Source of the DNA: Octopus vulgaris
Lineage: Eukaryota
Length of the DNA: 64,000 nucleotides
Assembly: GCA_951406725.2 (NCBI GenBank)
Contig: OX597824.1
Span: 25,358,001 to 25,422,000 of the forward strand
Direction: 5' to 3'
Under the pieces are notes generated by a model. It did no database searches and was not told the DNA's origin. It was given only the letters and a program-made list of their open reading frames with translations. The position numbers and the translations under genes are program-made. Within the stretch, counting starts at the first letter, position 1; each line of letters starts with the position of its first letter. This document shows positions 42,785 through 49,903 of this stretch, one piece after another.

Positions 42785-42952
42785 CACGCTTTCGTCCATT
42801 CTGGTGGAGTTTTCAAATTGAACTAAGTTCTTGTGGAAAAAGTTTGACCATTTTATAGTGTTATTGAGTGTGTAGTGGTGGGGAGGGATATAAGATAGTA
42901 CAAGAGGGTGATGAATGGGGAGAAAGTGAGAGAGAGCATGTGTGTGTGTGTG

Positions 42953-43006
<54 letters not shown>

Positions 43007-43342
43007 GAGAGAAAGAAGACCATAAATTGTATTTCCATTTTATCTTTGTCTTGAAAGAGAGAGTGCGTGTGCGTGTGTGTTTATGTGCGCGCGTGTGTGG
43101 TGCGTGTGTTTGTGTCTTTGTATCTGAAAGAGGTGTTAGGGAGGAATGGTCAAGTTGTTAAGAGTAACCAGTCATTGGCTTTTAGTAATGTTCTAGAGTG
43201 CCACTTTTGCTTATATTTTTGCAACTGTAAATGATTTTTGGTTTTTAGAAATTGGCAATTTCAAAAAAGAATTGTTAGGATTTCTTTTTATTATTGTTTT
43301 GTGAAGGTGTGTGTGTGTGTGTGTGATTGTGTGTGTGCGCGC

Positions 43343-43402
<60 letters not shown>

Positions 43403-43871
43403 AAAACAAACCTGTTTTTGTAATCCAGATTTTCCATCCCATCTAAGCACAGGAATAAAACATTGGATTGAAAGAACTGAATAGTGGTATAAATATCACC
43501 AGAATTATTTCTTCTTCCTCTTTTTCTTCTTTCTTCCCTTCTCCAACGACACCCCTTCCAGATTCACAGGCGCCCACACACACACACGCACATACACACA
43601 CACACACACACACATACCTTCACAAAACAATAATAAAAAGAAATCCAGATAATTCTTTTTTGAAATTGCCAATTTCTAAAAACCAAAAATCATTTACAGT
43701 TGCAAAAATATAAACAAAAGTGGCACTCTAGAACATTACTAAAAGCCAATGACTGGTTACTCTTAACAACTTGAACATTCCTCCCTAACACTCCTTTCAG
43801 ATACAAAGACACAAACACACGCACCACACACGCGCGCACATAAACACACACACACACTCTCTCTCTCTCTC

Positions 43872-45392
43872 TCACAAGACAATGATAAAAAGGAAATGCA
43901 ATTTATGATCGTCTGTCTTCTTGACTATATCCGGGTCTGATCCTTGGTCTCTGCTGTTTATTATTTTTTGGATGATACCCTTGATTGTGCCCTCGATATT
44001 GCTCTGCATTTTGCTCTCCGATGTGCCCAATATTTTACCATTGATTTTGCCCTCGATATTGCTCAGCATTTTGCTCTCCGATGTGCTCAATATTTTAACA
44101 TTGATTTTGCCCTCGATCTTTTTTATTCCCGATGTCTCCGAGATTGTACCATTGATTCTGCCCTGGATATTGCCCTGCATTTCGCTCTCCGAGGTGTACA
44201 AGATTTTAGCATATATCTCTGCATTTTGCTCTTCGGTGATATCTCTCTGCATTTTGCTCTCCGGTGTGTCCAAGGTTTTATCATTGATAGTGACCTTCAT
44301 CTTTTTCAGGACTGCAACCTCATCTCCTGTACCCTCAATTGGGTACAAGATATTTCCCTCCGTATCTCCGAGTTCGAATATGCCCGTTACTGTGCCCGTG
44401 AATGTGCCCTTGATTGTGTCTGTGACGGTCCCTTTGTATTTAAAAGACCTGTTGATTATATCCTTCAGGGCGTCTTTGAGATCTTGATTGCCCTTATTCT
44501 TTAATATCTCCTCCAAAATACTATCTGTAAAATAAGTAAATTCCTCCATATCTTTGACCCTTTCGAAAATTTTCAGGTGTTCATCTGCGGATTTCAAAGC
44601 CTCGCCAAGTAGTTTATTAAGCAGGAGAACAGTTTTGTGTTGGTAAGCCGTGTTATGTAGTCGATATCGTGAATAAAACATATCATAGAAATTTTTAAGC
44701 GTTTTGTCTCTGTAGCATATTTCACCATCTATTACTTTGGACATTTTCATCATTCTTTCGTGATCAAAGGATGTTCCAATGCCAAGAAAATGGGAATCTC
44801 TGGCCAGGTAATCCCATTTATCAACGTCGATGTTATAGTCTGCATTGTTGACGATTTGGTAAAGAAAGTTTGGTCTCTGAGATTTTTCTGGTTTACCAGT
44901 AATGAGATGTTTTATGAAATCAATTTCATCAGACTTAAGTTCTCCTTTAATATGTGGGTTCTTTTTAAAAAGATGCTCCAACATTTTACATGATGCATCT
45001 TCATGTTCCCACTTTTTACCTCCATCTTCCTTGAGATACTCGTTGATAATTTCTTGAAAGGCATGAGAAAAAGGCGCATGTCCTAAATCATGACACAAAC
45101 CAGCGATTTCAACACACAGTATATCTCGATCAGATATTTCCAGACCGGAATCTTGCTGCTTAAGATGGCGAATCATTTTCCCAGCTAGATGACATGTTCC
45201 CAGACAATGCTCAAATCTATTATGTGAAGCTGATGGATAAACGTAATAACACAAACCTAGTTGTTTGATATTACGTAATCTCTGAAATTGTACTGTATTA
45301 ATAATTTTAACACAGAGTGGTGAAAATTGCATGGATCCATGAATAGCGTCCTGAAAAACCTGATCCGGACGTGTATCGTTTGTGTTAGCCAT
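43872..45392 (-). CDS. SAMHD1: Intronless SAMHD1-like HD-domain dNTP triphosphohydrolase, copy 1 (no SAM domain; C-terminus truncated and replaced by 12 element-derived residues)
   Basis: DAIHG, QFQRLRNIKQLG, HNRFEHCLG, GLCHDLGHAPFSH, WEHE, DVDKWDYLARD, RYRLHNTAYQHK. Homology to copy 2 ends at 43910; the DYG..NP..FY / LPEKF tail is missing. Confidence 0.93.
   Translation of the reverse strand: MANTNDTRPDQVFQDAIHGSMQFSPLCVKIINTVQFQRLRNIKQLGLCYYVYPSASHNRFEHCLGTCHLAGKMIRHLKQQDSGLEISDRDILCVEIAGLCHDLGHAPFSHAFQEIINEYLKEDGGKKWEHEDASCKMLEHLFKKNPHIKGELKSDEIDFIKHLITGKPEKSQRPNFLYQIVNNADYNIDVDKWDYLARDSHFLGIGTSFDHERMMKMSKVIDGEICYRDKTLKNFYDMFYSRYRLHNTAYQHKTVLLLNKLLGEALKSADEHLKIFERVKDMEEFTYFTDSILEEILKNKGNQDLKDALKDIINRSFKYKGTVTDTIKGTFTGTVTGIFELGDTEGNILYPIEGTGDEVAVLKKMKVTINDKTLDTPESKMQRDITEEQNAEIYAKILYTSESEMQGNIQGRINGTISETSGIKKIEGKINVKILSTSESKMLSNIEGKINGKILGTSESKMQSNIEGTIKGIIQKIINSRDQGSDPDIVKKTDDHKLHFLFIIVL
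43976..44290 (-). repeat. Coding ~60-bp (20-aa) tandem repeats inside SAMHD1-like copy 1
   Basis: ttgatt(g/t)tgccctcgatattgctc(t/a)gcattttgctctccgatgtgc.caatatttta.ca units at 43981 and 44041, a 51-bp unit at 44101, and degenerate units from 44152; peptide KILxTSESKMQSNIEGxIxG. Confidence 0.9.
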
Positions 45393-45687
45393 TATAAAAT
45401 TGTTAAGAATATATCTAACTTACATTCACTTTGTCGTTTATGTTGCTGGTAGTCGTTTCGTTGCTGTTGTGTTTGTTAGTTTCGTAATGTGGAGTAGAAA
45501 TATAAATTATCCAAATATGTCCAGTTGAATATTTCTAACATTTGATTTGAAATGATCTCAGTCGCATTGGCATGAAATATCTGGTGTTTCAAATAATATA
45601 AGCGATCAGTAAGTCTCTGCGTGGTTGGTAGAAAGAACACGAAATGAACTATGTTGTTTTATGAAAAATCAGCTGACGACTACACCC

Positions 45688-45715
45688 ACTTCCTTATAAC
45701 ACAACTTTCACTTTA
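45688..45715 (-). promoter_or_regulatory. Candidate IRF-binding element + TATA-like + ETS motif upstream of SAMHD1-like copy 1
   Basis: Minus strand TAAAGTGAAAGT-tgtgt-TATAAGGAAGT about 300 bp before the ATG; motif match only. Confidence 0.4.
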
Positions 45716-45756
45716 CATCTTCAACATCACTAGCAATAACATTTAATAATATCGAA

Positions 45757-45807
<51 letters not shown>

Positions 45808-47566: not shown

Positions 47567-47598
<32 letters not shown>

Positions 47599-47950
47599 AA
47601 CCCCTTTTTTTCATTTTTTTAGTATTATCCTTTTGCTTTCCTATATTTTTTACTGGATATTTGATGAAGGAAACCCGTGTACGGCTGACATGGATTATCT
47701 TTGGTGAAATTAAATTTACAGCTACTTTCATTTTCTTAAAAAGAAGACGTAAATGCATAACAGAATGTATGGCTAGGGGATGGCGTGCTTCCTATAGGAG
47801 TATGCTGAAAAGGTAGTAGTATTAGTAGTTGTAGTAGTAGTAGTAGTGGTGGTGGTTTTGTTGTTGTTGTTTTTGTTGGTGGTGGTGGTTTTGTTGGTGG
47901 TTGTGGTGGTGGTGGTGGTGGTGGTTGCGGTGGTGGTTGTGGTGGTGGTG

Positions 47951-47982
<32 letters not shown>

Positions 47983-48159
47983 GGTTGTGGTGGCGGTGTA
48001 GTAGTAGTAGGAGTAGTAGTAGTGGTGGTGATGGTAGTAGTAGTAGTAGGAGTAGTATTAGTGGTGGTGATGGTGGTAGTAGTAGTAGTAGTGGTGGTGG
48101 TGATGGTGGTGGTTTTGTTGTTATTGTTTTTTTGGTGGTTGTGGTTGTGGTGGTGGTAT

Positions 48160-48220
<61 letters not shown>

Positions 48221-48468
48221 AGTGGTGGTGGTGGTGGCGGTGGTAGTAGTAGTAGGAGTTGTAGTAGTGGTGGTGATGGTGGTAGTAGTAGTAGTGGTGG
48301 TGGTGGTGGTGGTGGTCGTGGTGGTTGTAGTAGTAGTATTAGTAGCCCCAGGAGCAACAGATGCGTCACCGATATTAATTGTAGTTGTAGTTTATAGTAG
48401 CGTGCAATTTTCACTTTAACTACTGCGCAAAAAGTTCGTTGTTTTTACATGTGTATACGTGTGTACGT

Positions 48469-48525
<57 letters not shown>

Positions 48526-49383
48526 AATAAAACAAACCTGTTTTTGTAATCCAGATTTTCCATCCCATCTAAGCACAGGAATAAAACATTGGATTGAAAG
48601 AACTGAATAGTGGTATAAATATCACCAGAATTATTTCTTCTTCCTCTTTTTCTTCATTCTTCCCTTCTCCAACGACACCCCTTCCAGATTCACAGGCGCC
48701 CACACACACACACGCACATACACACACACACACACACACATACCTTCACAAAACAATAATAAAAAGAAATCCAGATAATTCTTTTTTGAAATTGCCAATT
48801 TCTAAAAACCAAAAATCATTTACAGTTGCAAAAATATAAACAAAAGTGGCACTCTAGAACATTACTAAAAGCCAATGACTGGTTACTCTTAACAACTTGA
48901 CCATTCCTCCCTGACACTCCTTTCAGATACAAAGACACAAACACACGCACCACACACGCGCGCACATAAACACACACACACACACACACTCTCTCTCTCT
49001 CTCACAAGACAATTATAAAAAGGAAATGCAATTTATGATCGTCTTTCTCCTCCTTTTCTTCCTTTCCTTGTTTTTCTTTAACACTCCTTTAAGATGCAAA
49101 CGCACACACACACGCACACACACACACATGCTCTCTCTCACTTTCTTCCCTCTTGTTCTATCTTATATCCCTCCCCACCACTACACATTCAATAACACTA
49201 TAAAATGGTCAAATGTTTTCCCCAAGATCTTAGACACCCCCCTTGGAGTAAACATCCTGACCAACTACAAAAGTAACCAGCAAAACAATATTTTCTTCTT
49301 CCCTCTCTCCCTTTTCTTTCTTTCCTTCTTTTTCTTTAACTATTCTTTCAGATACAAAAACACACACGCACGCACACACACAC

Positions 49384-49450
<67 letters not shown>

Positions 49451-49903
49451 TGATCTCTATCACTTTCTCTCCATTCATCACCCTCTTGTACTATCTTATA
49501 TCCCTCCCCACCACTACACACTCAATAACACTATAAAATGGTCAAAATTTTTCCACAAGAACTTAGTTCAATTTGAAAACTCCACCAGAATGGACGAAAG
49601 CGCTAATATATGATATATGATATAAGTTATATGATGTATAAAAACATGTAATATACAAATAAATATCTGTAAATATAAAACCATCCGAATTTCTGAGTAC
49701 CTCATTTCTTCTAATATAAAATACTTGTACATCATCTCCAAACATTCTAATAAACAAATGGAAGTAAATAACTATATACATATATTTTTTTATTTCATTT
49801 ATTTTTATTTTTATTTTTTAAACATTTTATTTATATTTATTACTATTATTACTATTATTATTGTTATACATATATACATACATACACAATAATAATAATA
49901 ATG

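Follow-up and report, generated by a model that had tools for sequence, protein, structure and literature searches.

Complex rearrangements of the FoSTeS/MMBIR type and unequal crossover between microsatellites are known rearrangement routes. Pack-TIRs offer another comparison. According to Tan et al. (2021; PMC8277862), single-copy Pack-TIRs form by transposition-independent gap filling, and 56.9% of them lie within 15 kb of their parent. The same paper describes Drosophila melanogaster Ssk-FB4, explained by a FoSTeST model. Ssk-FB4 has foldback-type, internally rearranged arms that enclose upstream DNA and nearly the whole of a gene, with loss of the 3' end. It shows excess amino-acid changes and has a possible immune role.

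Here we describe a locus of Octopus vulgaris within a 64-kb stretch of DNA (the window). As in the single-copy Pack-TIRs described in PMC8277862, nearby sequence lies within inverted arms less than 5 kb from its parent, there is microhomology at a breakpoint, the breakpoints are internal and there is no sign of movement. The arms of the published elements derive from annotated transposons, whereas the octopus arms are known from the window alone. In the published cases a small gap (median 4.6% of element length) lies between the two breakpoints, whereas in the octopus 515 bp of the element is duplicated around the cargo, so that tandem duplication plus deletion gives an equal product. The cargo also comes close to the 5-kb size limit given there, and its parent is probably not unique. 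The locus shares with Ssk-FB4 the features listed above; however, the coding region of Ssk-FB4 is complete, its location is on chromosome arms different from that of the parent, and it has three different target-site duplications of 9–10 bp, whereas the octopus element shows none of these. The two junctions at microhomology or simple repeats, and the directly oriented templated insertion with a duplicated flank around it, are also those of FoSTeS/MMBIR and microsatellite crossover. There is no difference in principle from these; the octopus case is germ-line and concerns an invertebrate gene array.

Inverted arms, direct repeat and cargo

The segments follow one another in the order A-B-G1-B'-C-G2, where G1 and G2 are SAMHD1-like genes. 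The features are as follows.

38493–41264, plus strand: context segment, repeated at 61230–64000
42787–43399, plus strand: segment A, left foldback arm, with a 55-bp perfect terminus, subterminal segment (42823–42937), (GT)n tracts and inner arm (43010–43351)
43347–43399, no strand: (GT)n tract at the loop-side end of the inner hairpin, partner in junction 2
43400–43914, plus strand: segment B, first copy of the 515-bp direct repeat, with the hairpin loop (43400–43574) and 3' inner arm (43575–43914); provides G1 with its final 12 codons and stop
43872–45392, minus strand: G1 open reading frame, a single-exon SAMHD1-like HD protein of 506 aa without a SAM domain
43910–43914, plus strand: junction 1, 5-bp CGTCT microhomology at the inner-stem base
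45393–48523, minus strand: DNA upstream of G1 (3.1 kb), presumed promoter region, which carries simple repeats and, at about 46477–46853, a Helitron-like insert
48475–48525, no strand: junction 2, (GT)n tract linking the cargo to B'
48526–49044, plus strand: segment B', in which the direct repeat occurs for the second time
49045–49602, plus strand: remainder of the right arm and start of segment C, with an older subterminal copy (49130–49233), a spacer and the outer arm (49383–49602)
49603–51298, minus strand: remainder of segment C, not in the G1 unit; 3' flank with polyadenylation-like hexamers and the final 60 codons of G2 (51117–51298)
51117–52783, minus strand: G2, outside the arms, with a full 3' end and a frame shifted near 51508
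51299–55903, no strand: block in common with the cargo; its last part is a (GT)n tract

A first-pass annotation had noted long inverted arms starting at 42787 and ending as the reverse complement at 49602. This proved correct: the terminal 55 bp are a perfect inverted repeat, with an outward extension of 0 bp. Four differences (2.65%) separate the arms over the terminal 151 bp without microsatellite, and the outer arms (about 220 bp; 42787–43006 and 49383–49602) are 97% identical. The inverted arms are not, however, the single pair of that annotation. They are nested and asymmetric, with an inner hairpin (43010–43351 against 43575–43918, and also against 48701–49049) in addition to the outer pair, and the older subterminal copy is about 7% diverged. 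Two terminal inverted repeats of one element flank the cargo, as in a Pack-TIR. An Rfam scan of 36000–64000 gave no matches.

The annotated direct repeat, the 4.6-kb block between its copies that matches 51299–55903, and both junctions were also borne out by alignment. The second repeat copy had been started at 48524, which is 2 bp inside the (GT)n tract, and was corrected to 48526; the two copies align with 510 matches, 5 substitutions and 4 gap columns. The cargo (43910–48523) is 96.5% identical to 51299–55898, with 55 mismatches and 110 gap columns, mostly in microsatellites. Its 4,614 bp, against 4,605 bp in the parent block, fall within the Pack-TIR rule (100–5,000 bp, at least 90% identity and a parent of similar length). 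The CGTCT of junction 1 is common to B/B' and G2. Microhomology of at least 5 bp occurred in 0.8% of 200,000 random switch-point pairs (P = 0.008), so this breakpoint exceeds chance as Pack-TIR breakpoints do; the other breakpoint has the (GT)n tract. On the gene strand, 10 of 13 bases match at junction 1, as judged by eye. Junction 1 is no more than about 5 bp away from where the inner-hairpin stem ends, the (GT)n tract of junction 2 occurs at three places (43347–43399, 48475–48523 and 55846–55903), and both breakpoints bracket the loop and 3' arm of the inner hairpin. The element is 1,697 bp from the block shared on the G2 side, which agrees with the cis pattern of single-copy Pack-TIRs. No arm match is found next to 51299 or 55903, in keeping with the Pack-TIR control for segmental duplication (a parent without the element within 100 bp). 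The parent is nonetheless linked at 1.7 kb, and the geometry is that of a tandem duplication with a deletion. Farther out, the context segment and its repeat differ by 4 substitutions in 2,771 aligned bases (99.86%) and run past the window edge, which points to a larger, younger duplication.

Mobile Pack-TIRs and Mutator or foldback elements have target-site duplications of 8–10 bp. The check for such a duplication, which the first-pass annotation had proposed, found no exact match of 7–12 bp over 256 end offsets. The flanks are AT-rich and of low complexity; they have only a 6-bp ATATAT, 3 bases outside each end, and shorter matches, and the exact termini have no match. In such flanks decay could have erased a target-site duplication. 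Within the 64-kb window no third copy of the arm was detected at a word size of 7, only short chance or microsatellite matches. The supplementary text on O. vulgaris repeats in PMC13282606 (5,371 characters) contains neither the terminal motif nor the words "foldback" or "SAMHD1". The proposal of a mobilisable defence-gene cassette is thus not upheld, given the lack of a target-site duplication and of a third arm copy in the window, the position 1.7 kb from G2 and the truncated cargo gene. Our verdict is that the sequence is best read as a stationary, transposition-independent, Pack-TIR-like rearrangement.

The enclosed gene and its paralogues

The HD domain of G1 was recognized by PF01966 (E = 9e-13), and the protein matches human SAMHD1 with E = 5e-76. 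In the alignment, H62, H101, D102, D191, H105, H110 and H130 of G1 correspond to human H167, H206, D207, D311, H210, H215 and H233. The HD metal-binding and active-site residues are kept, with the exception of Gln at the position of D218, a residue with a catalytic role. The positions of K116 and N119 are also Gln, and that of D137 is Asn. The octopus proteins share with metazoan SAMHD1 (human 6tx0 and 4bzc) the HD domain, the aligned metal and active-site residues and, judged by a model of a full-length O. sinensis relative, the fold. Unlike human SAMHD1, they have no SAM domain, are encoded by a single exon and end near human residue 557, and about 170 residues of β-rich repeats replace human residues ~460–495. 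G1 additionally lacks the C-terminal lobe-linker. Its codons 1–494 match the family, but the junction cuts the coding region 60 codons ahead of the stop of G2, and the 60-codon lobe-linker is swapped for 12 codons read from B. The gene and promoter annotated between the arms are present as gene and upstream DNA, but the gene is without its last 60 codons. Retroposition was rejected as the origin of G1 because 3.1 kb of upstream DNA accompanied it.

The lobe-linker (human 507–545, including K523) is present in the 3' end of G2 and in the paralogues. In human SAMHD1, residues 507–545 span the tetramer interface (PMC11074143), and K523A leads to less tetramerisation, less dNTPase activity and complete loss of restriction (PMC7854603). 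The model of the O. sinensis relative aligns to human SAMHD1 114–557 (4bzc) with Z 46.5, rmsd 2.9 and 393 aligned residues. The piece missing from G1 comprises strands 496–503 and 544–553 of that model (pLDDT ~80–90), and the tail of a paralogue aligns to human 494–555, K523 included. A single-sequence fold of the 3' piece of G2 had a mean pLDDT of 44 and was uninformative. Because the lost 60 codons model onto the lobe-linker with K523, G1 is probably crippled. Its frame is open and amino-acid changes are in excess, which could mean that it is functional. SAMHD1-like proteins are reported from O. vulgaris skin mucus (PMC11431876).

G1 is identical over 399 aa to the O. vulgaris model CAI9729852.1 and to the N-terminal part of CAI9729855.1. 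The latter departs from the frame at the codon where the G1 model does so too. On the strength of this identity and shared frame exit, a G1-type copy probably exists twice in the cluster. The identical downstream model therefore leaves some room for local transposition. No other protein with the junction-derived tail of G1 was found among four candidates, and the one match, an O. sinensis protein, spans the shared 73% only; gene models splice around tails of this kind, which makes the search weak.

Between G1 and G2 there are 31 nonsynonymous and 2 synonymous changes (dN/dS ~4, P = 0.046), a pairwise ratio that does not date from this event because both variant states occur in other paralogues. 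This holds for 19 of the 21 amino-acid differences, or 18 of 20 without the poorly aligned position 4, and it rules out G1 as a plain recent copy of G2 that later evolved fast. In a protein tree, G2 falls into a group (support 100/98) that holds three further O. vulgaris models and two copies from O. sinensis but leaves G1 out. This would not be expected of a plain copy of G2, and later conversion, or a donor from another unit, must be added to the explanation favoured below. The upstream DNA is another matter. Once simple repeats and a single 111-bp cluster containing 9 substitutions are left out, it differs at 10 of 2,007 unique bases (19 of 2,118 with the cluster). This rate is like that of B/B' (5/515) and of synonymous sites (2/297), with no significant difference (P = 0.21 and P = 0.66), which fits a single neutral age. 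The annotated derivation of the block from 51299–55903 accordingly stands for the upstream DNA, but the coding region was not plainly copied from there. The T-run of G2 at ~51508 is 2 bases longer than that of G1 and causes a frameshift, which is either real or an assembly error. T-run frame differences also occur among the paralogues.

Origin of the arrangement

We give about an even chance to a transposition-independent local rearrangement within a tandem SAMHD1-like array, produced by a hairpin-linked double template switch. At the outset, a nested inverted repeat of 1.7 kb would have lain some 1.5 kb downstream from a SAMHD1-like gene. The hairpin would stall synthesis in replication or break repair, and the nascent strand would change template twice, once between (GT)n tracts and once at the CGTCT microhomology of the inner-stem base. 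Through these switches 4.6 kb (the upstream DNA and the gene without its 3' end) would be inserted and the 515 bp between the switch points copied again, giving A-B-G1-B'-C-G2. The cassette would stay in place. G1, with its HD metal-binding residues kept and its tetramer-closing lobe-linker lost, would most likely be a weak or dead dNTPase, and its transcript would run into the hairpin, with an AATAAA at 43292–43287 as a possible end. The sequences show the geometry, junctions, truncation and shared variants, from which we infer the single step, the loss of activity and selection. A double template switch (FoSTeS/MMBIR or gap repair at the hairpin) had been suggested in the first pass and is a fair mechanism, since the breakpoints bracket the loop and 3' arm of the inner hairpin; tandem duplication plus deletion gives the same product.

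Such a two-step origin is possible, though we hold it to be the less probable course. Unequal exchange at (GT)n would produce a 7.4-kb tandem duplication of B-C-G (or two array units would be collapsed together), and microhomology-mediated end joining would then delete 2,254 bp, C, from the first unit. The hairpin would be a bystander or a fragile site. The gene would lie between the arms because a breakpoint happened to fall in the hairpin, and nothing would therefore have been "captured". The geometry is identical, and from the end product alone one step and two cannot be told apart. The tandem array recombines, with incompatibility in 49 of 136 informative site pairs and neighbours more compatible than shuffled sites (P = 0.004), and a younger duplication begins at 61230. 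Derivation of G1 and G2 from different units would fit the protein tree and the 19 of 21 shared variants. Against this, two events are needed, junction 1 must fall at the stem base by chance or through a second hairpin-linked break, and no intermediate is present in the window. An assembly artefact, in which reads of different array units or haplotypes were merged at the (GT)n tract and hairpin, is very improbable. Microsatellites and a hairpin occur in a near-identical array, assembly of the O. vulgaris reference used ONT R9.4.1 reads with short-read polishing (PMC10700109), and both the absent tail protein among the four candidates and the paralogue T-runs could be read in this way. However, B and B' differ at 5 sites, G1 and G2 differ at many that are non-random, mainly nonsynonymous and have states recurring in O. 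sinensis proteins, the microhomology of junction 1 is significant, and a second model ceases to match at the same codon.

A true Pack-TIR seems unlikely. The hairpin would belong to an active family as a non-autonomous transposon of Mutator or foldback type, and the element, 6.8 kb with its load, would already have hopped locally within the cluster, like Ssk-FB4. The perfect 55-bp termini and 97% identical outer arms fit, as do arms internally rearranged like those of FB4 (PMC8277862), the second gene model with 399 aa identical to those of G1, the amino-acid-change excess also seen in Ssk-FB4 and the recently active TIR families, Mutator included, reported in O. vulgaris (PMC13282606, Table 1). 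However, the target-site duplication and a third arm copy in 64 kb are absent, multicopy Pack-TIRs are located far from their parents (PMC8277862), the neighbouring 99.86% segmental duplication is a simpler source of an identical copy, and the cargo gene is truncated. At its boldest, and only as a long shot, the element would be a live, non-autonomous foldback transposon that acquired a SAMHD1 with a remodelled C-terminus and has already made one move inside the cluster (the CAI9729855.1 copy). It would be a cephalopod counterpart of Ssk-FB4, feeding an intronless array that diversifies under selection by viruses or retroelements, with G1 a linker-less variant or a source of hairpin RNA against its paralogues. 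Transposition of the cassette, if it had occurred, would make it a rare animal example of a coding multicopy Pack-TIR.

As a rearrangement, the locus is a further case of local duplication guided by a hairpin and microsatellite, the route to single-copy Pack-TIRs. It illustrates that an apparent "captured gene" can be mere tandem-duplication geometry.

The SAMHD1-like array

At least 15 distinct O. vulgaris SAMHD1-like proteins, with accessions within CAI9729836-57, are encoded in a cluster on one 99.98-Mb contig. At the protein level, at least five other O. vulgaris models are 92–100% identical to G1 over residues 73–424 or part of them. No paper on such an array appeared among the records listed in literature searches that paired SAMHD1 with octopus, cephalopod, paralogue or expansion. 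SAMHD1 restricts viruses and retroelements in vertebrates. The diversifying array is a better lead than the cassette. It is recombining, with mostly nonsynonymous variation and changed allosteric-site residues, and it may outweigh the rearrangement in importance. The array may be under selection. If this is confirmed on full DNA alignments, the cluster would be a testable lead on cephalopod defence against viruses or transposons.

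Anatomy of the inverted-repeat element

Re-alignment bore out the coordinates that the first-pass annotation had assigned to the arms, direct repeat, cargo and junctions of a foldback-like element in this microsatellite-rich animal DNA:

42787–49602: element enclosing a SAMHD1-like gene (G1)
42787–43399: left arm (A)
43400–43914: B, 515-bp direct repeat, repeated as B' at 48526–49044
45392–43872, minus strand: G1, 506 aa, HD domain
43910–48523: 4,614-bp cargo (G1 plus upstream DNA)
49045–51298: C, remainder of the right arm plus the 3' flank and last 60 codons of G2
51117–52783, minus strand: G2, most of it in the shared block 51299–55903

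The termini are exact reverse complements over 55 bp and stop sharply beyond. The arms are nested, with an outer pair of ~220 bp (4 differences in 151 non-microsatellite bases) and an inner hairpin of ~340 bp (7 differences within a 217-base core); the right arm has an additional, older copy of a subterminal segment (~7% diverged). B and B' differ by 5 substitutions. Since the arms diverge more than B and B', the hairpin probably predates the insertion; minus B and cargo, the element would measure 1,692 bp. The cargo matches the shared block at 96.5%. Junction 1 (43910–43914, CGTCT) is a 5-bp microhomology, a length that random switch-point pairs attain in 0.8% of cases, and junction 2 (48475–48525) is a (GT)n tract.

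A short, presumably Helitron-like element, judged by its 3' hairpin and terminal CTAG motif, lies within the cargo at 46477–46853; the loci noted for it also include 53905–54260 and 56171–56746, and a related palindromic copy occurs at 56171–56686. Older internal duplications (45923–46488, 47643–48459, 56803–57109; 69–89% identity) lie upstream of both genes. At 6049–7476, a 152-bp unit forms a tandem array (98–99% identity) adjoining a retroelement-like ORF (7260–7799) with no Pfam match.

Origin of the arrangement

The element had been proposed to be a potentially mobilisable cassette. That proposal is not supported: no exact flanking match of 7–12 bp was found at any of 256 end offsets (the flanks are AT-rich, matching only in ATATAT or shorter words), no third arm copy occurs anywhere in the 64-kb window, and the shared block lies 1,697 bp away. 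Recently active TIR families are reported in O. vulgaris (PMC13282606), and we consider a mobile Pack-TIR (host DNA enclosed by a transposon's terminal inverted repeats) improbable; misassembly is very improbable. Animal Pack-TIRs are described by Tan et al. (PMC8277862) as mostly single-copy, near their parents, marked by microhomology and transposition-independent, and multicopy ones as distant from their parents with distinct target-site duplications. The octopus element works like the single-copy class, but membership is withheld: its arms are only putative transposon termini, and the target-site search was negative. A palindrome at 59052–59798 consists of two inverted copies of a repeat dispersed through the window, so inverted structures here also form without a TIR element. 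Pfam identified Tc5-type transposase, Pif1 helicase and mariner-type transposase fragments (12721–13161, 15645–16136, 27049–28079), none tied to the hairpin. Our literature search, with subscription journals largely outside its reach, found no paper on octopus foldback elements.

The segments run A-B-G1-B'-C-G2. The double template switch suggested initially would give this order, and its product stands as a match; it is not a unique one, as tandem duplication of B-C-G via (GT)n tracts followed by loss of C from the first unit matches equally. We hold this two-step route to be possible but doubtful. Either route puts the gene between arms without any transposase. The loop of the hairpin and its 3' arm are flanked by the two breakpoints, with junction 1 no more than ~5 bp from the end of the inner stem, which favours hairpin involvement. 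Divergences of B/B' (5/515), upstream DNA (10/2,007 once simple repeats and a 9-substitution cluster are left out; 19/2,118 with the cluster) and synonymous sites (2/297) are mutually compatible, so a single neutral age fits. The structure is real and we judge the mechanism ordinary: with middling confidence, a duplication that arose at a hairpin in one step, independently of transposition, and has stayed in place.

The enclosed gene

Both large ORFs of the window have matches among SAMHD1-like proteins of Octopus: XP_029657943.1 of O. sinensis at 92%, and CAI9729852.1 of O. vulgaris at 100% across 399 residues. G1 aligned to human SAMHD1 116–461 (E 5e-76) with metal ligands retained. The junction truncates it after codon 494, replacing the final 60 codons by 12 from B. 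The AlphaFold model of a full-length O. sinensis relative (39-row alignment, mean pLDDT 78) superposes on human SAMHD1 114–557 (Z 46.5, rmsd 2.9, 393 aligned), and the segment missing from G1 is modelled as two strands and two short helices (pLDDT ~80–90). The tail of a paralogue aligned to human 494–555, placing the K523 position within the lost part, a stretch that alone scores weakly; there was also a weak match to mouse SAMHD1 (E 0.017). Human residues 507–545 are reported to cover the tetramer interface (PMC11074143), and K523A to lower tetramer formation and dNTPase activity and abolish restriction (PMC7854603). G1 is probably crippled, because the lost part matches this region.

The original 3' flank of G1 is lost as well. 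A polyadenylation-like hexamer first appears at 43292–43287, past the loop and 60 bases into the left inner arm, so a G1 transcript would carry a hairpin at its end. The predicted 3' untranslated region (43287–43871, minus) crosses the inner hairpin, and double-stranded RNA could thus form.

Residues ~320–490 (43929–44430, minus) include ~170 beta-rich residues with 20-residue repeats, modelled with low to middling confidence, in a young subfamily; they stand where human SAMHD1 has ~460–495, and repeat copy number differs between paralogues. Residues 11, 14, 32 and 113 are Gln, Gln, Asn and Gln at human K116, N119, D137 and D218. The Asn, the same as in the laboratory D137N variant, occurs in every octopod row of the alignment covering that site. 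Activator specificity may differ.

G2 retains its 3' end, but a T-run puts it out of frame. The shifted tail recurs in CAI9729857.1, and CAI9729854.1 has one extra lysine there. The run (51500–51510, 44110–44120) varies in length among paralogues, with the frame shifted in G2 and CAI9729857.1. As the reference was assembled from ONT R9.4.1 reads (PMC10700109), the shift may be long-read error or slippage acting as a switch.

A tandem array of SAMHD1-like genes

G1 and G2 belong to a tandem array: at least 15 distinct O. vulgaris SAMHD1-like proteins, a minimum from the best 120 of 3,907 matches, share one 99.98-Mb contig, and their accessions fall in the range CAI9729836–CAI9729857. In a 31-row protein tree with long branches flagged, they form a clade with O. 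sinensis, O. bimaculoides and two Argonauta proteins, separate from other molluscan SAMHD1 rows (100/100). No paper on the array was found by the literature search, which mostly did not reach subscription journals; octopus skin mucus is reported to contain SAMHD1-like proteins (PMC11431876).

Across 399 aa the N-terminal part of CAI9729855.1 is identical to G1, and the models of the two go out of frame at one and the same codon, so there are probably two G1-type copies. Segmental duplication would explain this most simply; a false duplication or local transposition may also account for it. Both gene models look chimeric, CAI9729852.1 splicing G1 to trypsin-like exons (18546–18653, 15030–15215) and CAI9729855.1 fusing two SAMHD1-like copies. 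Separately, 38493–41264, which we take to be a decayed LINE-like stretch with a nested SINE, is repeated at 61230–64000 with 4 substitutions (99.86% identical), extending past the window end. This repeat is younger than B/B' (P = 0.007); it is a recent segmental duplication, or else a false one.

Plain copying of G2 does not account for G1: within residues 1–423, both states of 19 of the 21 differences recur in other paralogues, and G2 clusters with O. sinensis copies to the exclusion of G1 (100/98), though recombination weakens any tree of the array. Among seven young sequences, 49 of 136 informative site pairs are incompatible, and neighbouring sites are more compatible than shuffled ones (P = 0.004). 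Over 489 shared codons, G1 and G2 differ by 31 nonsynonymous and 2 synonymous changes (dN/dS 4.0; Fisher P = 0.046), and nonsynonymous divergence exceeds that of upstream DNA (P = 1.5e-4 with the 9-substitution cluster, 6e-7 without). These patterns fit an array whose copies are homogenised by conversion yet retain amino-acid variants, and suggest diversifying selection on it, a lead resting on two DNA copies.
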